Positions 897-56,314 of a stretch of DNA of 64,000 bases are shown piece after piece. Each line of letters opens with the position of its first letter. The stretch's first letter is position 1. The notes below the pieces were generated by a model. It was not told the origin of the DNA. It saw only the letters and a list, made by a program, of their open reading frames with translations, and ran no database searches. The DNA comes from Elusimicrobiota bacterium (GTDB taxonomy: Bacteria; Elusimicrobiota; UBA8919), in assembly GCA_003452965.1 (NCBI GenBank), contig DMMW01000002.1, forward strand, positions 43,975 through 107,974, written 5' to 3'. The translations under genes and the position numbers were made by a program.

Positions 897-912
897 ATCT
901 GTGTAATCAGAT
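897..912 (+). repeat. junction motif ATCTGTGTAATCAGAT (+ orientation), 13 nt before ATG 925
   Basis: direct read of sequence. Confidence 0.8.
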
Positions 913-924
913 TCTGAGGTAATT

Positions 925-1887
925 ATGTTAAACGAAGTGAAATCAGTCTATGACAGAAAAAAGATATCAATAATTACAGGTGTATATAATGAAGAATCGA
1001 CTATACAAGAGGTATATGAAGTAATTAAAAAGGTTTTTTCAGAATTATCGGTAAAATATGATTATGAACATATTTTCATGGATAATTGTAGTAATGATAA
1101 TACACTTCCGATTTTAAGAAATATTGCTTCAAAAGATAAAAGAGTTAAGATAATAACATATTCAAAAAACTTTGGTCCAATTAAAAGTGAATTTATCGGA
1201 TACTTAAATGCAACAGGTGATGCGGTTGTAAGTTTTGAAGGAAATCTCAAAGATCCTGCCGAATTGATACCAACTTTTATAGAAAAATGGGAAGAAGGTT
1301 ATGATGTGGTTTATGGGGTAAGGAATAAAACAAGAGATAATTTTTTGATGTTATTTATGCGTAAATTATTTTATAAGTTATGTTCATCTTTGTCAGAAGA
1401 ACCCTTACCATTAAACGCTGGTTCTTTTCGTATTGTAGATAGAAAGGTGGTAAATGAGCTCATAAAATTAAATGATTATAAACCATATATAAGAGGATTA
1501 ATAACTACTATAGGATTTAAACAAATAGGAATAAATTATGAAAGAAAAGCGCGACCTAGAGGTAGGTCTAAAAGCAATTTAACTTATCTTATAGATTTTG
1601 CCATTAATGCATTTATAAGTTATTCTATCATTCCTATAAGATTATGTACATATATCGGTATTATTCTTTCAGTGGTTAGTTTTTTGGTAGCATTAGTTTA
1701 CGCAATAATTAAGATATTTTTTTGGAATATACAAGCACCGGGTATTGCAACGGTTATAGTATTAGTATTATTCTTTTCGGGTGTACAAATGTTTTTTCTT
1801 GGTATAATTGGAGAATATATAGGTGCTATTCATTCACAGGTGCGAAAGAAACCATTCGTAGTAATAAGCGAAAAAATCAATCTTTGA
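925..1887 (+). CDS. GT2-family polyprenyl-phosphate glycosyltransferase (GtrB/ArnC/DPM1-like) with two C-terminal TM helices
   Basis: N-terminal GT2 fold motifs (ISIITGVYNEE, FMDNCSNDNT, DAVVSFEGNLKDP), C-terminal hydrophobic helices; motif copy 897-912 just upstream. Confidence 0.7.
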   Translation: MLNEVKSVYDRKKISIITGVYNEESTIQEVYEVIKKVFSELSVKYDYEHIFMDNCSNDNTLPILRNIASKDKRVKIITYSKNFGPIKSEFIGYLNATGDAVVSFEGNLKDPAELIPTFIEKWEEGYDVVYGVRNKTRDNFLMLFMRKLFYKLCSSLSEEPLPLNAGSFRIVDRKVVNELIKLNDYKPYIRGLITTIGFKQIGINYERKARPRGRSKSNLTYLIDFAINAFISYSIIPIRLCTYIGIILSVVSFLVALVYAIIKIFFWNIQAPGIATVIVLVLFFSGVQMFFLGIIGEYIGAIHSQVRKKPFVVISEKINL

Positions 1888-1898
1888 TAGAAAATTCT

Positions 1899-3065
1899 AT
1901 GAATAAAGGTAAAAATAAGTTATTACTATTAATTGTAATTAACGTTTTAGTAGTAGTTATTGCAGTTCTATATTTTAATAGAGCATGGTTTTTTGAAGAT
2001 GATATAAGTTTAAATATTTTAGCTTCATTTACTACGGTAAGCCAAGTCGGGAAAGTAGAAGGTATAAGTCAAAACATAATAGGAGTGGATGGAAAAGAAG
2101 GGTTTTTATTACACGGCCGAAATATACCGTTAAAAAAAGGTAGTTATAAGGTAAGTTATAAAGTAAAATTGGTTGATATTGAAAATAATGATGATTCCGA
2201 AAAAAGTATAGGATATTGTAAAGTTAACTTGGCAAATGCACCTAAATATAATAAAAAAATAGAATTAAAAGCAAAGGATTTTTTACAAAAAAATCTTAAA
2301 AAAATAATTATAAATTTTACAGTACCCGAAGGTTACCCCTCAATAGAATTTCAGGTTTTTCAATTTTCTGGCAATAATTTATCAATAGAATCACTAAGAT
2401 TGAATTCAATTATCAGTGAACGTATTCCGTTAAGGACGAAAGAGGTTAAAAAAGCAGTTTTAAATATTATCGGTATGATAGTTTTAATTGCTTTTTTTTT
2501 ATTATTCATAATATTACGGTTCAAGAAGCTGGTATTTTTCATATTATTTATAATAATAGCCGAACTATGGTTTTTGAATATTGAACATTCGTCAGATATA
2601 TTAACTGGTTGTGCGATGTACAGTCCTATAGGGAAATTAGATTCGTTTATGCACATAAAGGCGAACGATACCAAAGAAGGATATCTTGCATATGGTCCGT
2701 ATCTTCCGTTAGAGAAGGGGAGATATAGGGTTAATTACAAAGTATTTTTAGATAATCTGGATAGTGGAGATGATATATCTCGCAAGGTAGGGTATTGTGA
2801 TATAGACATAGAGGGGCATCCTGAACTTAGGAAATTTAGTGAATTTACGGTAGGTAGTTTTAAGAAAAGGAATCCGCAGGAAGTGAGTTTAACATTTAGT
2901 GTGCCTGAAGGCATGCCCAAGACACAATATAGGGTATATCAATATGGTGGCAACAAATTAACGCTTTCGTCATTAAAGTTATACGATGTTGATATAACCA
3001 AGTACATCAGGACTCATTTAGACATATTATTAATTGCGATATTTATAACTATAATTTTTATATAA
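1899..3065 (+). CDS. membrane-anchored protein made of two tandem copies of an uncharacterised ~110-aa domain (TM-domain-TM-domain); ATG at 1899 chosen over overlapping upstream extension
   Basis: Two hydrophobic segments each followed by the repeat YGPY...GYC.IDIEGHP...FTVPEG.PK.QYRVYQ(Y/F)GGNNL; no recognisable catalytic motif. Confidence 0.5.
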   Translation: MNKGKNKLLLLIVINVLVVVIAVLYFNRAWFFEDDISLNILASFTTVSQVGKVEGISQNIIGVDGKEGFLLHGRNIPLKKGSYKVSYKVKLVDIENNDDSEKSIGYCKVNLANAPKYNKKIELKAKDFLQKNLKKIIINFTVPEGYPSIEFQVFQFSGNNLSIESLRLNSIISERIPLRTKEVKKAVLNIIGMIVLIAFFLLFIILRFKKLVFFILFIIIAELWFLNIEHSSDILTGCAMYSPIGKLDSFMHIKANDTKEGYLAYGPYLPLEKGRYRVNYKVFLDNLDSGDDISRKVGYCDIDIEGHPELRKFSEFTVGSFKKRNPQEVSLTFSVPEGMPKTQYRVYQYGGNKLTLSSLKLYDVDITKYIRTHLDILLIAIFITIIFI

Positions 3066-3091
3066 GTGTGATTGTTAAAAAACAACAATTA

Positions 3092-3106
3092 CTGATTACA
3101 CAGATT
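3092..3106 (-). repeat. junction motif, minus orientation (CTGATTACACAGATT), 12 nt before ATG 3119
   Basis: direct read of sequence. Confidence 0.8.
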
Positions 3107-3118
3107 AAATGGATAACA

Positions 3119-5476
3119 ATGAAGAAGATTAAAAGTATAATAATATTATCTGTAGTTATATTTTCAGCTGTTTTATATAGTATAGAGAAACAATGGTATG
3201 ACAAAGAGGGCCATATAAACATACTTAAGACTTGTGCTATGTACAGTCCGATAGGGACGGTTGGAGCAAACGGGCAGATAAAGGCGAACGGGATAGACGT
3301 AGGGTATTTGGCATATGGACCTTACGTACAGTTAAAGGCAGGCAAATATGCTATTAAGTATAAATTGATTTTAAATAATCTGAATATGGATGATGATAGT
3401 GGCAGGGTTGTAGGATATTGTGATGTGGATATAGAAGGTCATCCCGAGCCGGCGTATCATATTGATATGACTGTCGGTGATTTCAAGAAAAAGAATCCTA
3501 GAGAGGTAATGTTAAAGTTTACTGTGCCTGACGGGTTGCCGAAGGTACAGTTCAGGGTATATCAGTATTACGGGAATAATCATATGCTTTTAGGATTGAA
3601 GTTATATCCCAAGAGTTTATCATTATTAACAAGTTTATTAAAGAATAATTTTTTGACATATAATGTGATTTTATTTAGTACGATATTTTTCATATTTTTA
3701 TGCATATATTTTAAAATATGGAAGATATATAAATTGAAACTGTTTTTTAATAAATATAAATCTTTTAAGTTTGATGAATTAGAAGAGCATAATAATTCTG
3801 TTTCAATAAACTTCATTGTACAATTATGTATTATATCATTTTTTACTTTATTATCATTGAATGCTTTTTGGATGAACAGAATGGCTATTCCTGTAATTCC
3901 TTTATGGCAAACTGTATTCATAGCTATTGAAATATCAGTATTTGTGTTAATTATTAGAATATTTAATTTAAGATTGGATATTAAAAAATTTGATATATTT
4001 GATATTTCTTTATTCTTTTTAGTATTTCTGTTTATTTTTTATGTTTTAATAATGCCTTCAATACCCTCATTAATGCCAGTCAATTTCAGCAATGATTGTG
4101 TAACTCATTATTCATGGATGGACCATGTTTATAATAAAAGGACGCTTAATGGTTCGGAAATAGCATTTTATCCGTTCGGATATCATGTGACAACTGTAAT
4201 GTTATCAAAACTTACCGGTATCCCTGCGGTAAAAATGATGAGTATTTTATTGGCATTTGTCATAGCATTATCCACGGCTATTACATATGCTATTATAATA
4301 AGGGTTTTTAATTTTAAGAATGACGGTAAATTAGTTGCATTATTGCCGATATTTACATTTTTTTGGGTTAGAGGATATTATGATTTTGTGTTCAACAGGT
4401 TTTTTCATGGTTCTATGGTATTCAGTTATCTTTTTATGGTGTCGTTTTTTTGGGCTTTGATTGAATATAAAAATTATCCTAAATGGTTCAGTTATCTTTC
4501 GCTAAATTTATCAGCAATAGGGTTGGCTTATTCTTATACATCGTATTTGCCGATGTTGGTTATGCCTTTATTTTTAACGATTTTAATGGAAGATAATAGG
4601 AAATTTACCAGACGGCTTAAAGATTTATTGATTACTATATTGCCAGTTGTTATTTTAAGCATTATTCATTTGAAATCAAAAGGGACTTCCAATCTCGGTT
4701 TGGCTGTATTAAACCATGAAGGATATTGCATAAAATTTAATTTTATGAATTTCGGAGATTTTGGGAATAATGTTAAAGGCGGGTGGTTTTTAATTTTATC
4801 TTTAATTGGTATACCTGTAATAATATCAGGATTTAAGAAGAATATTGCTGTTATAAATTTTACTTTAAGTTTCTTATTGTACTTCTTTCTATTTTATATA
4901 TTAAAACATAATTTTGGAAAGTTTTCATATTATCAGGCGTATAAAATATTATATTTTTCTCCATATATAGCGGTTATTTATATTGCAGCAGTTTTATATT
5001 TTATTAGAAAACAATTGATTAAAATATTTAAACCATTTATTGGTGAAAAATTACATATAATATTATTTATTATATGGTTGTTGATTATTATTAATAAAGC
5101 TTCAATTGTTTATGATATGGAGAATTACAGACCTTGCTATCCAGAAATGTTGAAAGAATCGCATTATTTAACGATTGATTGGGCAAGGAAAAATATAAAA
5201 GAAAATTTTGATTACATATATCATCATCCAAATTTAGGCAACTGGATGCGGCACGGATTTATGAAGGATACTCTTAAAAATATAACACCCGATGAATATT
5301 ATTATCAAGTTTTTGTAATGCCTGTTCAAAAATTATCTGATTGGCTAAATAAGTCCAAAAAAGGAAGAATTGCTGTTGTGGATGATTTAAATACACCGCC
5401 ACTGACTGAGAAACAGAAAAGGCAGTTTGAAATATTATATCAAAAAGAAAATAGCGCAGTGATAAAAAAAATATGA
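3119..5476 (+). CDS. large polytopic membrane protein (about 14 predicted TM helices) with N-terminal copy of the same ~110-aa domain; possible glycosyltransferase/polymerase, function unknown
   Basis: N-terminus LKTCAMYSPIG..GYLAYGPYVQLKAGKYAIKYK..VGYCDVDIEGHP..FTVPDGLPKVQFRVYQYYGNNH repeats domain of previous gene; remainder strongly hydrophobic; start placed at MKKIKS after motif 3092-3106. Confidence 0.45.
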   Translation: MKKIKSIIILSVVIFSAVLYSIEKQWYDKEGHINILKTCAMYSPIGTVGANGQIKANGIDVGYLAYGPYVQLKAGKYAIKYKLILNNLNMDDDSGRVVGYCDVDIEGHPEPAYHIDMTVGDFKKKNPREVMLKFTVPDGLPKVQFRVYQYYGNNHMLLGLKLYPKSLSLLTSLLKNNFLTYNVILFSTIFFIFLCIYFKIWKIYKLKLFFNKYKSFKFDELEEHNNSVSINFIVQLCIISFFTLLSLNAFWMNRMAIPVIPLWQTVFIAIEISVFVLIIRIFNLRLDIKKFDIFDISLFFLVFLFIFYVLIMPSIPSLMPVNFSNDCVTHYSWMDHVYNKRTLNGSEIAFYPFGYHVTTVMLSKLTGIPAVKMMSILLAFVIALSTAITYAIIIRVFNFKNDGKLVALLPIFTFFWVRGYYDFVFNRFFHGSMVFSYLFMVSFFWALIEYKNYPKWFSYLSLNLSAIGLAYSYTSYLPMLVMPLFLTILMEDNRKFTRRLKDLLITILPVVILSIIHLKSKGTSNLGLAVLNHEGYCIKFNFMNFGDFGNNVKGGWFLILSLIGIPVIISGFKKNIAVINFTLSFLLYFFLFYILKHNFGKFSYYQAYKILYFSPYIAVIYIAAVLYFIRKQLIKIFKPFIGEKLHIILFIIWLLIIINKASIVYDMENYRPCYPEMLKESHYLTIDWARKNIKENFDYIYHHPNLGNWMRHGFMKDTLKNITPDEYYYQVFVMPVQKLSDWLNKSKKGRIAVVDDLNTPPLTEKQKRQFEILYQKENSAVIKKI

Positions 5477-6786
5477 AACATATGTCAATTTACCAGTTGC
5501 TTGGGAAAATTCCCAATCATATATGGGTTGCGGTAAGCAATTGGTGTAGCAGAATAATTATTGCAATGGTTCAGCTGGTAAGCATACGAATGCTTTTGGC
5601 TGGGTTTGGAAGCGAAAAATTCGCAGTTTTCGTGCTTTTGACGAGTTTAATAGGATGGTATTCTTTATCAGATATGGGAGTGGGCTTAAGTTTACAGAAT
5701 TATATATCGGAAAAAAGGTCACTGAATGAACCATATACGGATTATTTAAGTTCTGCTTTTGTAATTACTTTAGTTCTCTGGTGTTTAGGTATTTTCTTCC
5801 TTTTTTTAATAAGTCCGGTAATAGCTCCAATTTTTCTAAAACAATTTACTTTTATTAGCGACGCTGAGAAGATAAAATATTTTTTTATAATAGGATTCAT
5901 ATATTTTAGCGTAACTTTAAGTAGTACTACTTATAAAATATGGTATGCCGAGCAAAAGGGATATTTGGCTAACATAGTTCCCGCAATTGCATCTTTAATT
6001 GGTTTATTTGGTGTGTGGTATGTTTTAAAATTAGATGTAGAAAACAAATTGTTGATAGCATTAATTGCATTCACTTCACCGGCGATGATTTTAGGGGTAT
6101 TTTTTTTCTTTTTAAAAACCATTGTATTTTCAAAGTTAAGACTGCATAAAGATATATTTGTATTTAAGAATTTGGTGAATCGTGCTGGAAGATTTTTCTT
6201 TTTTGCGTTGATAGGATTATTTATTACACAGATTGATTATTTTGTTTTGTCACAGACAGTAAAAGCATATGATATAGTTATATATAATATTTCAAATAAA
6301 CTTTTTAGTTTTGCATTTTCAATATATGTTGCAGTTCTTACTGCATGGCATCCTGTAAATGCGGAGATGTATGTCAGAAATGAATTTTTCAATATTAGAA
6401 GATATGCAAAAACATATATAATTGCAGGGATATTAGGAATAATATTGTTTACCTTTGGATTTATGATATTTAAACAGAAAATAATAATGATTTTATCGCC
6501 CCAAGAAAACATAATCATACCTGTTGTATTTATATTATTGCTCGGTATTTATTTTGCAATAAGGATTTGGAATGATACTTTTGTTACATTGCTTGTTAGT
6601 ATGAATAAATTTCGTCATATATTTATTATTGCTCCGATTCAAATTGTAATTTCGGCTTTATTACAAATAACATTGGCATATAAATTCGGGATAAACGGTT
6701 TGATTGTTGGCTTGATAATTGCTTATCTTTCAACAAGCGCTTGGTTTTTACCGAAAGTATTCAAAAAACATGTTTTAATGGATTGA
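5473..6786 (+). CDS. wzx: MOP-superfamily polysaccharide flippase (Wzx-like)
   Basis: 437 aa, about 12 hydrophobic helices, Polysacc_synt-like N-terminus; ATGA overlap with upstream stop. Confidence 0.6.
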   Translation: MKHMSIYQLLGKIPNHIWVAVSNWCSRIIIAMVQLVSIRMLLAGFGSEKFAVFVLLTSLIGWYSLSDMGVGLSLQNYISEKRSLNEPYTDYLSSAFVITLVLWCLGIFFLFLISPVIAPIFLKQFTFISDAEKIKYFFIIGFIYFSVTLSSTTYKIWYAEQKGYLANIVPAIASLIGLFGVWYVLKLDVENKLLIALIAFTSPAMILGVFFFFLKTIVFSKLRLHKDIFVFKNLVNRAGRFFFFALIGLFITQIDYFVLSQTVKAYDIVIYNISNKLFSFAFSIYVAVLTAWHPVNAEMYVRNEFFNIRRYAKTYIIAGILGIILFTFGFMIFKQKIIMILSPQENIIIPVVFILLLGIYFAIRIWNDTFVTLLVSMNKFRHIFIIAPIQIVISALLQITLAYKFGINGLIVGLIIAYLSTSAWFLPKVFKKHVLMD

Positions 6787-11793: not shown

Positions 11794-14730
11794 ATGAAAA
11801 ATAAAAATATATTATTAATTATATTATCGCTTGTTTTGATAATAATTATTTCAACAATAATAGAATATAATCATTACAGGAAAACAACCACGGTAGACAT
11901 ATTGGGCATGAATATACCGATGTTTAGTGTAATAGGTAAGGTATCAGACAGCCGGATAATCACAGATGGAGAAAAGGAAGGGTATTTGGCATATGGTCCA
12001 TATATACCGTTAGACAAAGGAGAATATGAAGTAAAGTACAAAATAAAATTGAACAAGTCGAATCCGAATATAAGCAGCACAACATTAGTAGGATATTGTG
12101 ATATAGACATAGAAGGACATCCCCAACTTGGGTATCGTGCAGACTTAATAGTCAATAACTTTAAGAATATAAAAGAGAATGAAGTATCGCTTAGGTTTAC
12201 AGTACCTGGAGGTAAACCGAAAATACAATATAGAGTATATCAATATGGTGGCAATAATTTATCGTTAATAGGATTAAAATATTATCCAATAGGTTTAAGA
12301 GATTTTATAATAGATAAAGAAGGAAAATTGAATTTTAAAACAATTCATATATTTATAATAATATTTTTAGTATACATGTATATTAGGCTTATATTGAAAA
12401 CAAAGAAAAATAATCTAATCAAATATTTTATAATAAATACTATTACTATAGTCATTTCCGGATTGATAGTTGCCTTAATTTGGCAATATAAGAATTATTC
12501 GATACATAATTATACAGATTATTATGATATGTGGAAAGTATTTTATGCCCCATTATGGATGTCTCTTTTATTTATATTTTTTAATTTACTTTATTTAATT
12601 AACAATAGTTTTGGGTTTAATGTGCAAATCGAAAAATATCTTAGATATGATAGATATTCTTTAGTAATAATTCCGATATACATATTAGCAGAATTGTTTT
12701 ACAAAAATTTCAACACTCAATTTGTACTCGGTAATTTTTATCTAAGCACTTTGATAATCAAAGGGCTTATATATTTTTCTTTCCTTTGGCAAAATATAAA
12801 AGATAAAAATCAGATAGACAAATATCTGAAATGGAGTATAATTTTAAGTATTTTTACAATATATTTTTTAATTACTCCTTGGGTAAATGCCAGTTTTCAT
12901 AGCGATGGTGATGAGTCACTTTACTTATTACAGACGCAAAGTATAATAAAAGATTTAGATATAGATATAAAAAACAATGTGATACAAAATGATAGTATTT
13001 CTTATCATCCAAATTTACAATGGACTAAATGGCACGGGTCATACAGCAGACCTCTAACGTCATATATATTAATGCCGGGATTTTTACTATTAGGGCGGTT
13101 TGGTGCAACAATGACAATTAATCTGTTCGGTGCATTACTGGCAATTAATATATTATTATTGGCGTATTTATTTTCAAAATCAATAAAAGCAAGTTTTATT
13201 GCAATGATGGTAACTGTTTTTAGTTGTCCTGTCGGTATTTATTCATTTCTTGTATATCCAGAAATAATAGCGTCTTTAATTATGATATACTTAATAAGAA
13301 AAATATTATTAATTAATTTCGAATTGAATAATATAATAGTGCCAGTAATATTAATAATATCAATTATGTTATTAAAAGAAAGATATATTGTTTTGGTGTT
13401 GGCATTAAGTATTTTATTAATAATAAAAGTGGTAAAAAATACGAGAAGATTATTGTTAGTTACTTGTATGTTGATAATCGTATCAATTATATTTTTAATT
13501 TACGATAAAATTATTTGGGAAGGGGATATAGTCAAGAAAATAATGTTTCATTTTAGAAATTATAGTGATTATAGACAATTACTTATTGGCAGTTTAGGAT
13601 TATTGTTAGATCAAGAGAGCGGTTTATTGATTTATGCTCCATTTTATATCTTTAGTACTTTAGGAATGCTTAGTTTATTAAAATATAATAAAAAATATGG
13701 CTGGATGTTATTGTTATTATTTTCATTATACTATTTGACAATTCCTACAAGTGAATTCTGGGCAACATATGGTTCTCCAGCCTCAAGATATATAGTAGTT
13801 GTTATCCCGATATTATCAATAGCATTCAGTATTTATATTATTCATTTAAAAAAAATATTGTTAAAAATATTGACGATTTTTTTACTCGGATGGTCTTTTA
13901 TAATTTATTTTATACTTATCCTTATTCCACAATATAGGGTTCATAGCCCCAATTATGCAACCGGTAAAAATGAGTTACTGGATAGGTTGTATGCTACCGG
14001 ATTGTTCCCAAACTTGACACCATATTTTTCTTCATTCTTAAAAATATCGGATACAACTTATTATTTAATAGTTTTATTTGTGGTTGTATTTGTAGTGCTA
14101 CTAATTTATTATATTAAGCAGGAAAATATTACTGCGGAAACATATGACAAGAAAAAGGTATTAAAAATCACTGCGGTTATAGTTTGTATTATTGGTTTTT
14201 TGCTAGTATTCGCAGAAATCAGTTATTATAAATATCAGGTATTTGAAGTCGAAGATTATTATACCGGTGGTGGGACGATATGGCAAGAAGGTTTGATATA
14301 CAAAGGCAAAGGTTTTTTCTCACTTCTAAAAACATCATTAAGGAAAAATGAAGAAGTGAATGTAAAGATAATAGCAAAAGGTGATATATCTAAGAACTTA
14401 CCTGAAATTAGTGCTGAAACTGTTAATAATAAAGATAGAGAAAAAGTTGGAAAAACTATGATTGACAGCAGAGATTGGAAAGAATATGATATTTTATATA
14501 AATCAACGAAAGGTGATTTAAGTCCTTTTTGGTTTATTTACGATAATTATACTGAAGGTAAAGATGTTCTTATAGATAAAATTATATTTTCATCAATAGA
14601 AAAAAAGTCTTGGTTAGGATTTATAAATTATCAATTAGGCAAAATAGATAGACGTTTGGGTTTAATAGATTATGCACATATTAGATTTGAAAAAGCTGCA
14701 AAATTAGGATATAAAATTGAAAAAAAATAA
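11794..14730 (+). CDS. large polytopic membrane protein with N-terminal ~110-aa repeat domain and C-terminal soluble domain; tentatively GT-C-fold glycosyltransferase (ArnT/PMT-like)
   Basis: N-terminal EGYLAYGPYIPLDKGEYEVKYK..VGYCDIDIEGHP..FTVPGGKPKIQYRVYQYGGNNLSL; about 16 hydrophobic helices; loop motif DGDESLYLL reminiscent of DE..Y motif of GT-C enzymes. Confidence 0.4.
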   Translation: MKNKNILLIILSLVLIIIISTIIEYNHYRKTTTVDILGMNIPMFSVIGKVSDSRIITDGEKEGYLAYGPYIPLDKGEYEVKYKIKLNKSNPNISSTTLVGYCDIDIEGHPQLGYRADLIVNNFKNIKENEVSLRFTVPGGKPKIQYRVYQYGGNNLSLIGLKYYPIGLRDFIIDKEGKLNFKTIHIFIIIFLVYMYIRLILKTKKNNLIKYFIINTITIVISGLIVALIWQYKNYSIHNYTDYYDMWKVFYAPLWMSLLFIFFNLLYLINNSFGFNVQIEKYLRYDRYSLVIIPIYILAELFYKNFNTQFVLGNFYLSTLIIKGLIYFSFLWQNIKDKNQIDKYLKWSIILSIFTIYFLITPWVNASFHSDGDESLYLLQTQSIIKDLDIDIKNNVIQNDSISYHPNLQWTKWHGSYSRPLTSYILMPGFLLLGRFGATMTINLFGALLAINILLLAYLFSKSIKASFIAMMVTVFSCPVGIYSFLVYPEIIASLIMIYLIRKILLINFELNNIIVPVILIISIMLLKERYIVLVLALSILLIIKVVKNTRRLLLVTCMLIIVSIIFLIYDKIIWEGDIVKKIMFHFRNYSDYRQLLIGSLGLLLDQESGLLIYAPFYIFSTLGMLSLLKYNKKYGWMLLLLFSLYYLTIPTSEFWATYGSPASRYIVVVIPILSIAFSIYIIHLKKILLKILTIFLLGWSFIIYFILILIPQYRVHSPNYATGKNELLDRLYATGLFPNLTPYFSSFLKISDTTYYLIVLFVVVFVVLLIYYIKQENITAETYDKKKVLKITAVIVCIIGFLLVFAEISYYKYQVFEVEDYYTGGGTIWQEGLIYKGKGFFSLLKTSLRKNEEVNVKIIAKGDISKNLPEISAETVNNKDREKVGKTMIDSRDWKEYDILYKSTKGDLSPFWFIYDNYTEGKDVLIDKIIFSSIEKKSWLGFINYQLGKIDRRLGLIDYAHIRFEKAAKLGYKIEKK

Positions 14731-14766: not shown

Positions 14767-17546
<2,780 letters not shown>

Positions 17547-17550
<4 letters not shown>

Positions 17551-19742
17551 ATACAGGTTGGATAAAATTAATTTGCACAATCGGACCAAGCTCTTCAAAT
17601 CCATACGTTTTGAGGCGTATGAAACAACTTGGAGTAAGTTTATTACGTATTAATATGTCGCACACTTCAATAGAACAATTGGATAAAGCAGTAAAATCTA
17701 TAAGGGCTGCGACAGATATTCCTATTTGCATAGATACTGAAGGCGCGCAGATTAGAACAGGTAAAGTTGTAAATAATAACTTAGAATTAAAACAAGGTGC
17801 GATTATAGAGTTAACCAAAAAAAATATTATTGGTGATTCTCAAATATTAACTCTTACACCGGACAGTATTTTTAATCAAATAAAAATAGGCACTATGCTA
17901 TTTTTAGATTTCAACAAAGTCACGATATTGATTGTTGATACTACTGAGACAGGTAGTTTTTTAGCAAAAGTTATGCAAACAGGGATAATCGGCAGTAATA
18001 AAGCTGTTAATATAGATAAAGATATTGATTTACCGAGTATTACAAAAAAGGATTTGAAAGCTATTCAGTACGCTAATAAAAATAATATAGATATTTTCGC
18101 CTTATCTTTTTCTAAAGGAAAAGAAGCAATAAAACGTTTAAGATCGCTTGCGAAAAGGAATGCGACAATTATATCCAAGGTAGAAAGTTGTAAAGGTATA
18201 AATAATATAAATGACATAATACAATATTCGGATGCTATTTTAATAGACAGGGGTGATCTTTCCAGAGAAAAACCTGTAGAGAAAATCCCTGCATTACAAA
18301 AGATGATTATTACTAAAGCACATCAAAAACCTATTCCTGTATATGTTGCAACAAATCTACTTGAATCCATGGTAACCAATCCTTTCCCTTCAAGAGCAGA
18401 AATAAATGATATAGCTAATACTTTGGCAGACGGAGCAAATGGATTAGTTCTTGCTGCAGAAACTGCAATCGGTAAATATCCTGTTCAATGTGTAAACATG
18501 GTAGGAAAAATGATAAAACAATACAATTCTGAAATTGCAGAAATTGCAAAGTTAGGAATTTCGTGGAAGGGTATAGATTTGATAAATAATACCAGGTTGC
18601 CGCATGGCTATAGCTCTGATGATTATAGGATAAGTTTAAAAACATTTAAAAAGAAAAAAAATAGACAAAGTATATCTATCAATTCTTTTGCAATTAGTGA
18701 TATAAATAATATAACGAACGGATGTTACTCGCCGTTAACAGGTTTTATGACAAAAGAAGAAACAGATTGTGTGCTTGATTATTATTCTTTACCTAATGGT
18801 ATTATATGGCCGATGCCTATAGTTTTGCAAACTTCATTAAATAAGATTAATATGGGTATAGGCGAAACTGTAGCATTAGTTGATAGGTATAGCAATAAAC
18901 GTGTAAGTTATATAACTATAAGTGATATATATAAATTAGATAAAAAAGATATTTCAAAAAGATGGTTCAAGACCGATAGTTTGAAGCATCCTGGGGTAAA
19001 AAGGATATTTAATGGCGGTGATTATTTTATAGGCGGTGAGATTAGTCAAGAGGAAGTATATTATAAAATGTCTCCGGAATATTGTTTAACTCCTTCACAA
19101 GTAAGAGCTATATTTGCAAATAGAGGTTGGGATAGAGTTGTAGGGTTTCATACCCGTAATATACCTCATCGTGCCCATGAATATATTCAGATGAAAGCAA
19201 TGGAAAAAGTAGATGCCGATGGTTTATTTATACATCCGGCAATCGGTGAAAAAAAGAGCGGAGATTTTACAATTGATGCAATAATAGAAAGTTATAAAGC
19301 GTATATTGATGCTGCCGGTTTAAGCAGTAAAACCTTGTTAAGCGGTTTTTTGGCGAATAGTTGGTATTCAGGGCCTAGAGAAGCGGTTTTTACGGCTATT
19401 TGCCGTAAAAACTACGGTTGTTCGCATTTTGTCATCGGCAGAGACCATACAGGTGTTGCAGATTTTTACAAGCCGAGTGAAATACATGATTTATTTGATA
19501 AGTTGGGAGATATTGGTATTAAACCTATTTTTTTTGATACGGTTGTTTACGATAGTAAGAAGAAAGCTTATGAAGAAATACCTTTTGAAAAAATATCCAA
19601 AAAATATAAAAAAATATCAGGAACAAAAGTAAGAGATTTACTATCCGAAAGGAAATCTCCGCCAGTATGGATGGTTAGAGAAGAAGTGAGTAAACAACTT
19701 CTGAAAAGCATATCTAAAGGAAAGAATATATTAGTTAAATGA
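17547..19742 (+). CDS. sat: fusion protein: N-terminal pyruvate-kinase-like catalytic domain (about 350 aa, no C-terminal regulatory domain) + C-terminal sulfate adenylyltransferase (ATP sulfurylase, Sat)
   Basis: PK motifs KLICTIGP, RINMSHT, ICIDTEGAQIRTG, ISKVESCKG, LIDRGDLS, NLLESM..NPFPSRAEINDIAN..AAETAIGKYP; Sat motifs CYSPLTGF, GFHTRNIPHRAHE, VIGRDHTGV; single uninterrupted 731-aa ORF. Confidence 0.75.
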
Positions 19743-20269
19743 AAAATGGATTAATTGTGTGGTTAACGGGTTTATCCGGTTCCGGAAAAAGTACTATTGC
19801 AAATATAGCAGTCAAAAAACTAAAAAAAGCAAATATAAAGTCGGAAATAATAGATGGTGATGCCGTAAGAAGTCTAACTACAAAACACTTGAAGTTTTCC
19901 AAATCTGATATATCAGAGAATAATAGAATAATTTCGGATGTTTGTGAAGAAAAAAGAAAATATTTGGATGTGGTTATTGTAACGGTTATAGCACCGTTTA
20001 AAGAAATAAGAAAAGAAATCAGGGATAGATTCGGTAAGTTATACAAAGAAGTGTATGTAAAAGCTTCATTAGATACTGTAATTAAAAGAGATCCGAAAAA
20101 CTTATATGAAAAAGCTAGGCAGGGTCTGATAAAAAATATGATAGGTTTTTCTAAAAGTGTTCCATATGAAGCACCTGATAATCCGGATCTTATATTAGAT
20201 ACCGAGAGAAAAGAAGCGGATGAATTAGCATTAGATTTAAAAAAATTTGTAACGGACAGTATTGATTAG
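19739..20269 (+). CDS. cysC: adenylyl-sulfate (APS) kinase
   Basis: P-loop GLSGSGKST, IDGDAVR, LKFSKSDISENNRIIS, RDPKNLYEKA. Confidence 0.85.
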   Translation: MKNGLIVWLTGLSGSGKSTIANIAVKKLKKANIKSEIIDGDAVRSLTTKHLKFSKSDISENNRIISDVCEEKRKYLDVVIVTVIAPFKEIRKEIRDRFGKLYKEVYVKASLDTVIKRDPKNLYEKARQGLIKNMIGFSKSVPYEAPDNPDLILDTERKEADELALDLKKFVTDSID

Positions 20270-21086: not shown

Positions 21087-22571
21087 ATGTCATCTAATAG
21101 TATTTCTGTCGGACACGAAATAATAAAATCGGCAAAATGGCGTATTATTTCATCAGGAACAAGTTATGTGTTTATGTTTGCAAGTATGATAGTACTTGCA
21201 CGTTTTATTAAACCAAGCGAATACGGGACAGCAGCTCTGGTTATAAGCAGTATAGCTTTCTTTAATATAATAAGTCAATTTGGATTTTCACCGTCAATCG
21301 TAGGTATTAAGGATATAGATAAATTATTTATTGACACACTCTTTACTTTTTCTTTAATATTTGCTTCAGTTCTTTACATTATACTATTTATAGTTTCACC
21401 GAAGATAGCGAAATTTTATAATAATCCGATTTTATCTAAATTATTGATTGTAACAGGGTTTACTTTATTTTTAAATATTATTATGTCTATACCGATTGCT
21501 TTGCTTCACCGTTCTTTGAATTATAAAAGAGAAACACAGGTTTTTTTAATTATGTCGCTTATTAGCAGTATTACTGCAATAATAATGGCTATTCTTGGTG
21601 CCGGAGTTTGGGCATTGGTTATACCACCGTTAGTCGGTAATTTATTTAGCGTATTTTTAGCTTTTTATTTTGCTGAATATTATCCAGCATTTAAACTAGA
21701 TATTTCAAGGCTGCGTAAATCCTTAAATTTCGGACTGTCAAGTTTCGTATCCAACATTACGTCATTTTTTTTCCATAATTCAATAGAACTTTTTATGGGA
21801 AAAATATGGCCTTCTGCAATACTCGGTTATTATACATTTGCCAAAGGGAAGTATCTTAAAGTAATTGAAGCTTTTTCATCTGTTTCTATAAGTTCTTTGT
21901 TTCCAATATTATCAAAAGTCAGCGAAGATAAAGTGCGACTAAAAAATGTTTTTTTTAGAATTTCAGAATTATTTAATTCTATTTTAATACCTATTTATGT
22001 TATTTTAATTGTCGGAGCTCACTTTATCTTTAATTTTTTATTTGGTGATATATGGAATCAAGCAATTATTCCGTTCCAGCTTTTGTGTTTTACTCAAATT
22101 ATTCGTTCAATAACTATAGCTGTAAATCATTTGCAATATGCCATAAATCAACCGGATGTTCCTGCAAAGGTACAAATAGTTGTAATTCCTATATATATAT
22201 TTATAATTTACATCTGTTATATTCATAAAACCAATTTAATTACTGTTATAATAATATTCACTATATTTAGCAGCTTGTTACCGTTATTAAATTTAGTAGT
22301 ATGTTTTATAAAATTAAAATTTAGTATAAAAGAGTTTTTTAGGCATACAATGTTATATTCATTATTGTCTAGTCTTGTTTTATTCTTTGTTTTGAATATT
22401 TCTTTTAAATATTTAAGACAAAATTCGAGGTTAAATATTATCAGTTTTATGTCGGTTATTTTTGTTTCTTTATTATTATATGTTTTAGTAAGGTATAAAT
22501 ATTTTTTTAATCAATTTTTAAATATACGCAGCATATTAAGGACAAAAAACATTTCTTTATTAAGTGAATAA
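21087..22571 (+). CDS. second MOP-superfamily polysaccharide flippase (Wzx-like)
   Basis: 494 aa, multi-helix hydrophobic profile typical of Polysacc_synt flippases. Confidence 0.55.
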   Translation: MSSNSISVGHEIIKSAKWRIISSGTSYVFMFASMIVLARFIKPSEYGTAALVISSIAFFNIISQFGFSPSIVGIKDIDKLFIDTLFTFSLIFASVLYIILFIVSPKIAKFYNNPILSKLLIVTGFTLFLNIIMSIPIALLHRSLNYKRETQVFLIMSLISSITAIIMAILGAGVWALVIPPLVGNLFSVFLAFYFAEYYPAFKLDISRLRKSLNFGLSSFVSNITSFFFHNSIELFMGKIWPSAILGYYTFAKGKYLKVIEAFSSVSISSLFPILSKVSEDKVRLKNVFFRISELFNSILIPIYVILIVGAHFIFNFLFGDIWNQAIIPFQLLCFTQIIRSITIAVNHLQYAINQPDVPAKVQIVVIPIYIFIIYICYIHKTNLITVIIIFTIFSSLLPLLNLVVCFIKLKFSIKEFFRHTMLYSLLSSLVLFFVLNISFKYLRQNSRLNIISFMSVIFVSLLLYVLVRYKYFFNQFLNIRSILRTKNISLLSE

Positions 22572-45509: not shown

Positions 45510-47357
45510 ATGGCAGGTATATTCGGTATAGTTGAAAAAAATAGTGAAAAATCGGCAAGTTTTACATTGAATAAAGTCACATCAATGGTGAAGCATTTCC
45601 CTTGGTTGAAGGTTCATTCTATTTCTAATAATGAATTCAAAGGATTTTTAGTATTACCTGATTGTTTGAGCGTTAAAGATTATTTATATGAAGATGATGA
45701 TTTAATAATGTTACTTTACGGTAATATTTCAAGAAAGCATCTTAAAAACACAAAATTGGATGTTTTTATTAATAATTTAAGCGAATTGGCAAGTTTATAT
45801 AAGACAAAGGGTGTTGAATCATTAGTGCATATGGACGGAAGTTATACACTCTGTATATGGGATAAAAAGAAACATTGCTTATATATTGCAAATGATTGGC
45901 TGGGATCGCGAAAATTATATTATTGGCAATCAACTACGGGTATTGTTTTTGGCAGTGAGTATAAAATATGCTTGTTGCATCCGGATTTTAAACCAAAGCT
46001 TGATAAGTTTAGCCTGGTTCAATTTCTTAGAAGAAATTATTTGATACAAGATAACAATATGTATGAGAATATGAAATTAATTCCTTCAGATAGTTTGCTT
46101 AAATACTTTCAGGGTAAACAAGAAATTAAAGTATTTAATTGGGCTAAATTTACTGATGACCGATATAATTGTGATATGGCTGATTTAATTGAAGAATATT
46201 ATCAAATTATATCGAATACGGTTTCTGATTGTCTAATAGGAGCAAAAAAAGTATTGGTTCCGCTATCCGGAGGCCTTGATTCAAGATTATTACTTATTAT
46301 TGCAAATAATATAAAATCAAAAAGTGATTTTGCATTAACAGCTATAAATCATGGGAGAAAATCCAGCGCTGAATCAAAAGCAGCGGATTTGGTAGCGAAA
46401 AAAGTAAAAGTCCCTTTTATTCAAGTTACTTTAAAAGATAATTTTTTGTCGGATTATATTGAAGAACAGAATTGGATAAGTGAATTGGCAGTAGATAGTC
46501 ATGCTACACATTGGTTTCCGACATTATATAAGGTGAAAAGTGAATATGATTGTATTTTATCCGGATACATAGGAGATGTTTTTGCAGGTTCATACCTTAA
46601 TTTATCTGAAGGCATTGATAAAAATAATTTACCTATGTCAGAAAAAGCTAAAATTGTTTTACAAAGATATACCGGAAGAATGCCGATGGAAACCTGCAGT
46701 AAGTTACTTAAAAGAGATTTTGTAGAATTATTAAATGAAGAGGAAAAATCTTCAAGGTGTTATTTGGAAAATACATATGGTAATACAATTAAGGAAAAAT
46801 GGACATTATATTTATTAAATACTCAGATGCGCCGTTTTATATCTTATATTTTAGATTATAATTCTAATTTAGGTGAAGTGGTAGCTCCTTATATTAGCCA
46901 TTCAAATGTAAACTTTTTCTTTTCACTTTCTCCTGCAATTTTACATAACCGTTTATTTTTTAAGGAATTTATGCGATCAAAATTCAAAGGTTTTTCAGAG
47001 GTTATGACTACAGCTGATCCTATGCCCATAGTAAAACCTAGTTCTTTTGATACACATTATATTTATATTAAGCAAATGTTGTTTTATTATTTGTTTTGTA
47101 TTCTAAAGAAACAGATACCGGGAGAAAGAACTTATAATTTGGTATATTATCCGGATATTATTAAGTTTAATAAAAAATATGTTTATAATTCTATATTTAA
47201 TAATCCTTTATTTCCCGAAATATTTAATATGGATATGATGCAGAAACATTGGGATGAATTTCTTTTTGAAAATGATAGTTTGTATTGGCAATGGTTTGAA
47301 TTGTTAGCTTTTGATAAATGGAGTAGAAAGTTTTTAACCAATTATGATGGAATATAA
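45510..47357 (+). CDS. asparagine-synthetase-like ATP-dependent amidotransferase (PP-loop), N-terminal GATase-II-like domain with Ala replacing nucleophilic Cys2
   Basis: Starts MAGIFGIV (canonical MCGI); VLVPLSGGLDSRLLL PP-loop motif. Confidence 0.65.
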   Translation: MAGIFGIVEKNSEKSASFTLNKVTSMVKHFPWLKVHSISNNEFKGFLVLPDCLSVKDYLYEDDDLIMLLYGNISRKHLKNTKLDVFINNLSELASLYKTKGVESLVHMDGSYTLCIWDKKKHCLYIANDWLGSRKLYYWQSTTGIVFGSEYKICLLHPDFKPKLDKFSLVQFLRRNYLIQDNNMYENMKLIPSDSLLKYFQGKQEIKVFNWAKFTDDRYNCDMADLIEEYYQIISNTVSDCLIGAKKVLVPLSGGLDSRLLLIIANNIKSKSDFALTAINHGRKSSAESKAADLVAKKVKVPFIQVTLKDNFLSDYIEEQNWISELAVDSHATHWFPTLYKVKSEYDCILSGYIGDVFAGSYLNLSEGIDKNNLPMSEKAKIVLQRYTGRMPMETCSKLLKRDFVELLNEEEKSSRCYLENTYGNTIKEKWTLYLLNTQMRRFISYILDYNSNLGEVVAPYISHSNVNFFFSLSPAILHNRLFFKEFMRSKFKGFSEVMTTADPMPIVKPSSFDTHYIYIKQMLFYYLFCILKKQIPGERTYNLVYYPDIIKFNKKYVYNSIFNNPLFPEIFNMDMMQKHWDEFLFENDSLYWQWFELLAFDKWSRKFLTNYDGI

Positions 47358-49035
47358 AATCTATTTTCTGGAATCTATAAAGGGACAATTAAAATATCAC
47401 AAGAATTATTTGTTTTTAATGATTTCGATAATATTTGTTTCTATGCCGTTTTTTTTGTTTAGGACAGGGTTAGGGCAGGACGATTGTGCGATTATATTAG
47501 CCGGGTTAAAACAATTAGAATATAAAATATTTTCATTCAAGCCGATGGAAAGCGTTTTTTTTAGGTTATTCGATTTTTCACACGGCGGATTTAATTTGAT
47601 ATGGATTCTTGGATTCTATGTAACCGCGGCTTTTTTTAAAATTTCTCTTTACACATGGATATTTACCTTGCCGGCAGCTATTTCTGCATGGTTAACAGCG
47701 ATAGTTATTTATTTATTTACTTATAAAATAACGAAAAAACGTTTTATATCATTTTTAGCATTTTTAATTTATATTTTTATTCCAATCGCTATTGGTATGG
47801 GTAGACAATATTTTTATCCGTTAACTTTTATTAGGATATTTTTTCTTTATTCTCTCGCAATATCTCTCTCAAAAAATTCCGTATTTTGGAAAAAGATTGC
47901 GATTCTAATATTAGGGCTTATGATTTTTTCCGACAATGGATTTCCGATTTTTCTTTTTTTAGGTTTATTATTAATATTTTTTAATAAGTTGAAAGATTTT
48001 CCTGGAGCGAATTTATTAAAAAAAATATTTTTATCAGTATATAGGACATTTTTGTATTTTGCCGATATTTCCATACTGCTACCTGTTTTTATTATTGTAG
48101 TATATATAGTCCTATATATAAAACCTGTACATGCCGGATACGGATTTATTTACTATACATTACAAAAGAAAATGTCATATGCTTTTTCTTTCCATAAGGA
48201 TATTTTTGCATCGTTATTCGAAAATTACGGGTATGGAATCGGACTAATATTTCCTGTAGTTTTATTTTTTTCAGTTTATCTAATATATATTAAAGACTAT
48301 ATTGAAAAAAGAGCAGATATCTTTGTGATTTATTTATGGTTTTTAATTTGGATAATTTTGGGCTTTGCTGTTCAACCATGGGCATTAGGAAAAATGTATT
48401 TATTTGAATTTACTCCTATACCGGTTGCAATATTAGGAGCAATTAATATAGATTATTTTTTAAATAGATTTAAACGTTCAACGGTAAATGTATTGATCAT
48501 TATTATATTTTTGAATATTATATCGTGTACAAGTATGATTTTTGAATTTCCATATTCATCGCCTCAAAATGTTTATGGTACTCCTAAAGGATACGATTAT
48601 ACTAAAACATATAAAGCGGTGGGTGCTTTATTGCGTTCGGAGGGTTATCATCCTTTGAAAATGAGAGATTTACCTTTAGAAAATGTTCCTATAGTTTTAT
48701 GTGCTAATCCAAGTTATTGGACTCCTTATCCTGCAATATTTTACTGGGGGGTTGATACTTCAAAAATGCCTAATAATTATACAAATACAATTGTATATCT
48801 TAAGGATAGTGGTGGTGACAAAAAACAATTGGAATCTTGCTTAGTTTTTGTAAAAAAGAATAAATTTAATATTAAATATATAATATATAAAAATGAAAAG
48901 CCAATTGCCTGGTTGTATTATAGAAATTATAATATGAAACCAATAAAACATGAAAGAGATTATTTAATAAAAGAGTGGGACAAAAAATATGCTAATCTTA
49001 GAGATATTAAAACAACTGGTCCCCATGCTCTTTAA
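47344..49035 (+). CDS. polytopic membrane protein (about 10-12 TM) with C-terminal soluble domain; possible polymerase/GT-C, unknown
   Basis: Strongly hydrophobic profile; no diagnostic motif. Confidence 0.3.
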   Translation: MMEYKIYFLESIKGQLKYHKNYLFLMISIIFVSMPFFLFRTGLGQDDCAIILAGLKQLEYKIFSFKPMESVFFRLFDFSHGGFNLIWILGFYVTAAFFKISLYTWIFTLPAAISAWLTAIVIYLFTYKITKKRFISFLAFLIYIFIPIAIGMGRQYFYPLTFIRIFFLYSLAISLSKNSVFWKKIAILILGLMIFSDNGFPIFLFLGLLLIFFNKLKDFPGANLLKKIFLSVYRTFLYFADISILLPVFIIVVYIVLYIKPVHAGYGFIYYTLQKKMSYAFSFHKDIFASLFENYGYGIGLIFPVVLFFSVYLIYIKDYIEKRADIFVIYLWFLIWIILGFAVQPWALGKMYLFEFTPIPVAILGAINIDYFLNRFKRSTVNVLIIIIFLNIISCTSMIFEFPYSSPQNVYGTPKGYDYTKTYKAVGALLRSEGYHPLKMRDLPLENVPIVLCANPSYWTPYPAIFYWGVDTSKMPNNYTNTIVYLKDSGGDKKQLESCLVFVKKNKFNIKYIIYKNEKPIAWLYYRNYNMKPIKHERDYLIKEWDKKYANLRDIKTTGPHAL

Positions 49036-54844: not shown

Positions 54845-56314
54845 ATGAAATCACAAAATATCAGCGATTATACGAATGAAGATGATAAATTTATAAATTT
54901 TTCAACAATATTAAAAGCAAGCACTTTGATATTATGGATAATGTTCAGCATTTTGTTTACATTTCAAAAATTTATAAAAGTTAAAATCTATGCTGATTTT
55001 AAGACCTTTTTAGTAATAACACTATTTAGTTTATTCCTTTATATTTTTATTAGTTCAAAAAATGAACATTATGAAAATAGTTTAAGATTAGGTATTGGGT
55101 TTATTTTAATAATAATATTCCTTCAAAGAATAATATTTCTAACAATATATCCAATAGATTTTGAATATAATTTTTATAAAATTTATACGTTAAAAGAGTT
55201 TAATTATGGGATATTTGCATTCAGTATATTATTATTTGCAAGTTTTATAGCAATAAAAACTGTAAAATTTATTCCTTTTAAGGAGCCAAAGATAATATAC
55301 ACATTACCTTCCTATACTAAAATAAGATATGTTTTGTATATCATTGCATATTTGTCTTTAATTATAAGTATAAATCTTGGTTATTTTTTGAATTGGAAAA
55401 TGGGTACAAAATGGGAATATGGTTGGTTATCTAAATTGTTTCCGAATTCTTTGTATACTACGATGATGGTTTTATTATGGGTATTTTACGGACAATATTT
55501 AAAAATAAAAGACAAAATATTAATATCAATATATTTATTGTTGACTATTATGTTTGGTTTAATACAGGGTAGTAGAAGTGGTATTTTCGGAATAGTAATG
55601 ACATTTTTTAATGTTATAGTAGTTGTAAAAGGTAATTTTAAAATATCTAAAAATATTTTTATTATATTGGTTATTATTAATTTAATATTAGGTCCATCTT
55701 TATGGTTTGTAGGAAATGCAATTAGATATAAAAAAAGCATAAGTTATATTTATAAAACATCAAGTTTATTAAAAATAACCAGTGCTATTTCATATAGAGT
55801 AGGTTCGGCTACCGATGATTTTTTAATAGAAGTTAATAATTGGGGTGATAAAGAAATTATTAAATCATTGTTTACTTTAGAAAACGTTATAAAAGCAGGG
55901 ATAAATGCAGCAGTTCCAGGTGAGGTGTTTAAGGATGCCCCGTTTGAAAGCAGCGGTAACTTATGGCTTTCAATATTCATGAGTGAACAATTGGGCAGTA
56001 GAGTGCAAGGTACAGTTTGGTCAGGTTTTGGTTTTATGTATACTTTATTTGGGAAATGGGTTTTATTACATGTATTTTTATGGTTTTTGGGAATAAGTTA
56101 TATTTTAAAAATATTAATTACTAGAAAAACAATATTTCATAATTTGATAGCAGTTTATATTTTTAATATATTTATTATAGAATATTTTATGAATGGCAAT
56201 TTAGATGCTTTTATTACCGGAGTATTTTCAGTATTTCTTTTAATATTTATATTATATTTTATAATAACTATTGGAATAAATGCTCTCAATAAACCTGTAA
56301 AACAATCCCGATAA
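54845..56314 (+). CDS. polytopic membrane protein, putative O-antigen/repeat-unit polymerase (Wzy-like)
   Basis: 489 aa, more than 10 hydrophobic helices with one larger loop; typical of divergent Wzy; no conserved motif. Confidence 0.35.
   Translation: MKSQNISDYTNEDDKFINFSTILKASTLILWIMFSILFTFQKFIKVKIYADFKTFLVITLFSLFLYIFISSKNEHYENSLRLGIGFILIIIFLQRIIFLTIYPIDFEYNFYKIYTLKEFNYGIFAFSILLFASFIAIKTVKFIPFKEPKIIYTLPSYTKIRYVLYIIAYLSLIISINLGYFLNWKMGTKWEYGWLSKLFPNSLYTTMMVLLWVFYGQYLKIKDKILISIYLLLTIMFGLIQGSRSGIFGIVMTFFNVIVVVKGNFKISKNIFIILVIINLILGPSLWFVGNAIRYKKSISYIYKTSSLLKITSAISYRVGSATDDFLIEVNNWGDKEIIKSLFTLENVIKAGINAAVPGEVFKDAPFESSGNLWLSIFMSEQLGSRVQGTVWSGFGFMYTLFGKWVLLHVFLWFLGISYILKILITRKTIFHNLIAVYIFNIFIIEYFMNGNLDAFITGVFSVFLLIFILYFIITIGINALNKPVKQSR

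Follow-up and report, generated by a model that had tools for sequence, protein, structure and literature searches.

A predicted membrane-tethered jelly-roll domain repeated four times in a surface-glycan locus of an Elusimicrobiota bacterium, with a possible role in acceptor binding

Introduction

The 64-kb stretch of contig DMMW01000002.1 (Elusimicrobiota bacterium, assembly GCA_003452965.1) analysed here, called the window throughout and the reference for all window coordinates, encodes three membrane proteins, pA, pB and pC, which carry the same domain in four copies among genes of glycan synthesis. The question raised by this locus is what kind of domain this is, on which side of the membrane it lies and what it may contribute to the proteins that bear it. 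Among the structures that GT-C glycosyltransferases build and decorate are O-antigens, cell-wall polymers and glycoproteins; to our knowledge the choice of acceptor by these enzymes is understood for few cases only, for example EmbC and AftD. As modelled, the domain is an extracytoplasmic, membrane-tethered beta-jelly-roll of the galactose-binding-domain-like/CBM6-35-type fold class (CBM, carbohydrate-binding module). The reading favoured here with moderate confidence, by analogy with known enzymes, is that it would bind glycan and present the acceptor polymer to membrane GT-C transferases during surface-glycan assembly. An earlier note on this DNA had proposed a carbohydrate-binding or acceptor-recognition module of GT-C-like enzymes, an interpretation which is partly supported by the results below.

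Four copies of one domain on three membrane proteins

Searches with the four domain segments across the window (tblastn and BLASTP) returned exactly four copies, as noted earlier, and no fifth was found by either program. All of them are on the plus strand, as are their host genes: A1 (2004-2420) and A2 (2589-3002) in pA, a non-catalytic protein of 388 amino acids (aa) encoded at 1899..3065, B (3206-3625) in the polytopic pB (3119..5476, 785 aa) and C (11881-12303) in pC (11794..14730, 978 aa). Orthologs of pA are present in L001 (385 aa), P0006 and L009 (L001-L014 label sister-strain and relative contigs, L001 being a Logan contig; P0006 etc. label relative proteins). Pairwise identity among the four copies is 35-58%, with E values of 1e-25 to 1e-54 in BLASTP. 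The length of about 110 aa given earlier proved too short, the envelope of the hidden Markov model (HMM) covering about 135-140 aa around a beta-sandwich core of about 118 aa. The C-terminal sandwich of pC was considered as a further copy and rejected, as it belongs to a different family from the N-terminal domain.

The motifs YGPY, GYCD.D.EGHP and YRVYQYGGN are present in A2, the canonical copy of pA, and in B and C; for these three the motif string of the earlier note holds. A1 is a divergent subtype, in which G-(R/Q)-N replaces GPY and the EGHP loop is missing, HGRN and CKVNLANAP standing where the canonical motifs would be. This subtype, without the D.D.EGHP loop, recurs once per double-domain protein, as the first copy in pA, in pA of L001, in P0006 and in P0009, and as the second copy in P0007. 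To judge from these sequences, it looks like functional divergence, not decay.

Each of the four domains is flanked on both sides by transmembrane (TM) helices. The N-termini of the host proteins (MNKGKNK, MKKIKS and MKNKN) have a charge of +2 or +3 and no acidic residues, and a hydrophobic helix comes next in each case, with neutral or acidic sequence beyond it. Behind the domain stands a second TM helix and then a lysine-rich stretch, KTKKNN in pC and KIWKIYKLK in pB. In pA the order is TM helix, A1, TM hairpin with an RFKK turn, A2 and C-terminal TM helix, so that a TM-RFKK-TM hairpin connects the two domains. The statement that every copy directly follows an N-terminal TM helix is therefore correct for A1, B and C, while A2 is preceded by the internal hairpin. 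Since the positive-inside rule can be applied to these flanking charges, all four domains are placed on the outer side, in agreement with the extracytoplasmic location proposed earlier, and the unit may be described as a cassette, consisting of a TM helix running in-to-out, the domain outside, and a TM helix running out-to-in.

A family without a curated model

The domain could not be assigned to any known family, as the earlier note had stated. Against Pfam-A 2025 and NCBIfam 20.0, the curated libraries used, neither the domain nor the membrane part of pB or pC had a match that reached the gathering or curated cut-off, and full pB and pC gave no match even at E <= 1. For pA the highest Pfam score, 21.2 bits for CopC, fell short of the cut-off (23.3) and included no significant stretch; CopC and Big_14 were dismissed on these grounds. 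The domain region was matched by no Pfam model in the 88 relatives scanned, and the Pfam CBM models do not match the domain even at E <= 1. A profile of the four copies, compared with the sequences of the PDB, gave implausible weak matches only (multicystatin and eS12, E 0.006-0.08), which were dismissed as short; a wider profile of 52 sequences gave a weak match to the C-terminal domain of a GH98 protein (9h6h 814-898, E 0.011).

A word-indexed search of 5.8 billion proteins found just 5 relatives. When 1.84 billion cluster representatives (clusters at 50% identity) were searched exhaustively with HMMER, 813 were found at E <= 1e-3, 115 at E <= 1e-10 and 20 at E <= 1e-30, and the domain therefore represents a real family that lacks a model. 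Its signature is G.L.YGPY..L..G.Y ... D(V/I) ... L.F ... EFRV...G.

Copy C was the copy chosen for structural modelling. The model is a two-sheet beta-jelly-roll of about 120-140 residues, which superposes on galactose-binding-domain-like and CBM6-35-36-type members. The identity of the domain to modules of the CBM6, CBM35, CBM36, CBM15, CBM16 and CBM22 type is only 5-12%, and the domain differs from these modules in having a signature of its own (G.L.YGPY..L..G.Y ... EFRV.Q.GGN). It also differs in setting: classical CBMs are appended as soluble modules to secreted hydrolases, but in the core clade a TM helix stands on either side of the domain.

Relatives and fusion partners

The best 150 relatives include 68 soluble or single-anchor proteins, often bearing several repeats; another 44 are polytopic and carry C-terminal copies, and in about 14 polytopic ones the copies are N-terminal. 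Partner domains in relatives include GH25 with CHAP and dockerin, GxGYxYP and peptidase S8; these are extracytoplasmic by nature, and the outward placement of the family agrees with them. The more remote members, which are secreted, carry the domain up to 5-10 times together with glycoside hydrolases, CHAP and dockerin. Such an arrangement is the usual setting of substrate binding, rather than of specific heteromer interfaces, and speaks against the alternative that the domain is a protein-protein module, by which pA, pB and pC would hetero-oligomerise through their ectodomains into a single assembly complex at the periplasmic face, with pA as a scaffold and no glycan bound. We regard this alternative as unlikely, and glycan binding as the preferred reading.

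The N-terminal cassette is fused to Pfam GT87 (PF09594) in P0013, P0014 and P0095, and to PMT_2 (PF13231) in P0016 and P0017. Copies of the domain lie C-terminal to DUF2079 (PF09852) in 13 of the 78 proteins scanned; DUF2079 presumably belongs to the GT-C clan, and a literature search on it found no paper. Members of at least four unrelated families of membrane proteins begin with the cassette. In relatives the domain is attached to membrane parts of the GT87, PMT_2 and DUF2079 type, whereas pB and pC match none of these three models, nor any PDB sequence, and PDB sequence searches with their family profiles likewise returned nothing.

The membrane parts of pC and pB

The protein pC consists of an N-terminal TM anchor, domain C, a GT-C core and a C-terminal CBM36/6/35-like beta-sandwich (aa 814-933, 14233..14592). 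It superposes on solved GT-C enzymes, the GT-C fold being common to pC, ArnT, PMT and ALG12; the call draws on one structure-comparison method and on the motif DGDE, and a Foldseek search with full-length pC against the PDB gave CBM matches only. DGDE (aa 371-374, 12904..12915) stands at the start of a loop directly after the helix 343-367, with short loop helices next, and conservation of G372 and D373 among 18 family members is 90% or more. Because a lysine-rich loop precedes helix 343-367, the motif is predicted to face outward. It is a candidate for the catalytic acidic motif of the GT-C core.

The earlier description of the hosts as GT-C-like thus fits pC; pB, which has an N-terminal TM anchor in front of domain B, is without a Pfam or PDB sequence match. 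Its family comprises 8 homologs, in 2 of which the best Pfam match is DUF6541 at E 0.22, and contains an invariant D326/H330 loop behind a TM helix. Homology between the membrane parts of pB and pC was indicated by hhalign with a single alignment and choice of options (97.6%, E 3e-12) and scored 0.2-0.3% in four other set-ups, whose inputs were re-cut or re-aligned; it was rejected as an artefact, the negative comparisons being themselves weak, as the same shallow profiles failed to link known GT-C families to each other. The case (A4 vs A3) is a caution on the comparison of profiles built from shallow, hydrophobic alignments.

Gene context and a possible mechanism

The domain genes lie in the order DegT aminotransferase, GT2, pA, pB and a Wzx-like protein. 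The GT2 enzyme (925..1887) matches Pfam Glycos_transf_2 (1.2e-19), has C-terminal TM helices and is of the PgfS/ArnC/GtrB-like kind: the NCBIfam models PgfS (1.2e-69) and ArnC-type (1.9e-40) both match it at full length and below their equivalog cut-offs, PgfS with 235 bits against 500. At the family level only, it is a probable polyprenyl-phosphate-sugar synthase making a lipid-linked donor. The candidate Wzx-like flippase (5473..6786) belongs to the MOP type, has at least 9 TM segments and a weak match to Polysacc_synt (2.6e-4), and the gene also follows pB in L001, L003 and L011. Between it and pC are a GT2, a methyltransferase, a dehydratase, another GT2 and a GT4, and after pC come a candidate Wzz-like chain-length regulator (14767..15801, TM segments at residues 34 and 318, with an ortholog in L001 that weakly matches PF02706 Wzz), an epimerase, a sulfotransferase, genes for the synthesis of 3'-phosphoadenosine 5'-phosphosulfate (PAPS) and a second Wzx, followed by Glf, NeuB and additional GT4 genes. 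In L001, L002/L010 and L009, too, GT2, a double-domain gene and pB stand in this order, the double-domain gene of L002/L010 being a fusion that encodes 1027 aa, and pC is again followed by Wzz in L001, L005/L013 and L012.

With the jelly-roll as a glycan binder, the process may be pictured as follows. The adjacent PgfS/GtrB-like GT2 would load a sugar onto polyprenyl phosphate, the loaded lipid would be flipped across the membrane, and the GT-C enzyme would move the sugar onto the polymer at the outer face, while the jelly-roll would hold the acceptor glycan or cell-wall polysaccharide near the active site. The role of pA would be to add two further binding modules in trans. A GtrA-type small flippase was not found at 1-16 kb, where no plus-strand open reading frame (ORF) of at least 80 aa is left unassigned; the flippase-like genes that were found encode Wzx-like MOP proteins only (5473-6786 and 21087-22571).

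The same neighbourhood bears on another possible acceptor. The enzymes might be PMT/PgfM-like protein O-glycosyltransferases, with a surface or S-layer protein docked by the jelly-roll. This is a slim possibility, against which stands the 64-kb polysaccharide island itself with its Wzx-like, Wzz-like, sulfotransferase, NeuB and Glf genes. The PgfS score of the GT2 is far under its equivalog cut-off, and the Pmt enzymes score no better than ALG12 and ArnT, neither of which glycosylates proteins. A polysaccharide or other glycan acceptor thus remains the preferred reading.

Nearly all genes scanned in the window are genes of glycan synthesis, and they form an unusually long single-strand island of 25-36% guanine plus cytosine: all genes assigned in the first 16 kb, and all ORFs of at least 150 aa beyond it, are on the plus strand. 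The island includes, besides NeuB and Glf, radical SAM/SPASM, two DUF362 proteins, an asparagine-synthase-like protein, several GT4 and sugar methyltransferases. The region 16717-20269 encodes a sulfotransferase, a 731-aa fusion of pyruvate-kinase barrel, PUA_2 and ATP sulfurylase, and an adenosine 5'-phosphosulfate (APS) kinase; by their predicted functions these genes imply a PAPS supply for a sulfated glycan, and the pyruvate-kinase/sulfurylase fusion is unusual. Two polytopic proteins with 8-10 TM segments and no Pfam match (47344-49035, 563 aa, and 54845-56314, 489 aa) are candidate Wzy-type polymerases or ligases. Scans of the window for tRNA genes and Rfam families found nothing.

Age of the four copies

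The earlier note had taken near-identical DNA between copies as a sign of recent duplication or gene conversion. The quoted 25-mers exist and agree at 23 of 25 positions, although they start at 2610 and 3233 rather than 2612 and 3235, but such similarity is limited to short stretches: the longest exact nucleotide matches between copies are 13-20 nucleotides (nt), and over the full domain the codon-aligned DNA is 50-63% identical. Where residues are identical, the codons agree in 16-44 cases, against 23-38 expected from codon usage, and because the counts match this expectation the synonymous sites are saturated. In L001 and in Elusimicrobia bacterium RIFOXYD2_FULL_34_15, moreover, every paralog is matched by a separate ortholog. 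The four copies are therefore old, predating the related genomes, and recent duplication or gene conversion among them was rejected. Both minus-strand ORFs singled out earlier (2735..2920 and 11874..12155) do contain GCPSMSISQYPT, but this reverse-frame peptide common to the copies merely reflects the conserved VGYCDIDIEGHP coding stretch.

As a separate observation, the domain of pC in the window is more like the domain on pB of L001 (60%) than its counterpart on pC of L001 (45%), which hints at an older exchange of cassettes between paralogous host genes. The Wzz-like protein (14767-15801) is 95% identical to that of RIFOXYD2_FULL_34_15 (L005, MGVS01000061.1), compared with only 57-60% for pC. 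The window probably derives from a near relative of this groundwater lineage, with the GT-C genes as the fast-diverging part of the locus.

Variation of the cassette between strains

Two contigs, L014 (ENA ERZ28563792; protein P0157) and L012 (Ga0208373_1005135, a JGI sample), are 99.5-99.8% identical to the window, yet their pC carries two cassettes and has 1174 aa (contig regions L014 3001-6525 and L012 1-3216). The window segment 11860-12309 is present twice in this sister strain, in copies 98.2% identical over 453 nt and separated by a unique spacer of 135 nt that encodes a TM-RNR-TM hairpin, so that the layout of pA is reproduced. The difference in cassette number is either a recent duplication in the sister strain or a recent loss in the window lineage.

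One other strain is represented by L009 (Ga0208246_1003660) and L011 (Ga0208373_1005563), whose overlap is 100% identical across two samples. Compared with the window, DegT and everything from Wzx onward are 97-100% identical, while identity drops to 57-80% in GT2-pA-pB (window 897-5445) but for one patch of about 400 nt (3346-3745), in which the 3' portion of domain B lies together with its TM helix and which is 94-99% identical. The allele is thus a mosaic, and GT2-pA-pB behaves like a replaceable serotype-type module. The two-cassette pC and the mosaic patch show that recent duplication or loss and recombination act on the cassette, and they do so between strains, not among the four paralogs of the window.

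Two further readings of the domain draw on this variation. According to the first, TM-jelly-roll-TM would be a mobile specificity cassette that, within a population, is duplicated, lost and recombined between GT-C enzymes and thereby re-targets the modified glycan or position, with pA supplying cassettes in trans, much like the swapping of receptor-binding domains in phage tail fibres. This is unlikely in our view, although the tandem copy of 98% identity on pC, the patch of 94-99% identity and the at least four host families would fit it; if true, domain shuffling would be a route to surface-glycan (serotype) diversification.

According to the second, the domain would be a structural spacer or ruler without a specific ligand, setting the distance between enzyme and envelope or assisting membrane insertion, and the cassette would spread because TM-bracketed units duplicate easily. 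It is consistent with this that most of the conserved residues sit in core strands, that A1 is retained despite the loss of the YGPY and EGHP motifs, and that cassette number varies between near-identical strains without obvious harm. The loop motifs D.D.EGHP and GGN are, however, strongly conserved across the core clade, and the family is found also on hydrolases and on secreted proteins without a membrane enzyme. The spacer explanation is very improbable in our view, and binding of an acceptor glycan is again preferred.

Implications and comparison with known systems

That a GT-C enzyme can carry a CBM is known already; new here are the sequence family, the cassette bracketed by TM helices, the tandem protein that stands alone and the dynamics between strains. 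The family comprises at least 813 clusters at 50% identity. It would mark the acceptor side, outside the cytoplasm, of at least three recognised GT-C families (GT87, PMT_2 and DUF2079) and of two orphan polytopic families, of which that of pC shows a GT-C fold, and it is found also on secreted hydrolases of the cell wall. With a model of the family, many membrane proteins now listed as "hypothetical" could be annotated better, and there would be something soluble and expressible with which to find the ligands of enzymes that are otherwise intractable. Given the change in copy number and the mosaicism, the cassette may be a site where surface-glycan diversity arises.

Three-component periplasmic glycosylation by GtrA, GtrB and GtrC (PMC11127046) offers one scheme for comparison. 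Here, too, a GtrB/ArnC/PgfS-like GT2 with C-terminal TM helices adjoins polytopic proteins in an O-antigen-like cluster, and the hypervariable GT2-pA-pB lies between near-identical flanks, as expected of a serotype-modifying module. The locus differs from Gtr systems in that no small GtrA-type flippase was found nearby and that pA is an extra, non-catalytic component without a Gtr counterpart; the pB beside the GT2 is only a candidate GT-C protein.

Another parallel is offered by the mycobacterial arabinofuranosyltransferases. EmbC's C-terminal domain and CBM1-3 of AftD are extracytoplasmic lectin-like sandwiches which bind the acceptor polymer and are required for activity (PMC3044687; bioRxiv 10.1101/2019.12.22.885152). 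Unlike these, the module described here is N-terminal with its own signal-anchor helix, belongs to another sequence family, occurs also in a stand-alone tandem protein and comes from uncultured Elusimicrobia-like bacteria, for which glycan binding is what we infer. The likeness is that of a beta-sandwich placed on the extracytoplasmic side of a GT-C enzyme, and in pC there is even a second sandwich, at the C-terminus, where the modules of EmbC and AftD are also located.

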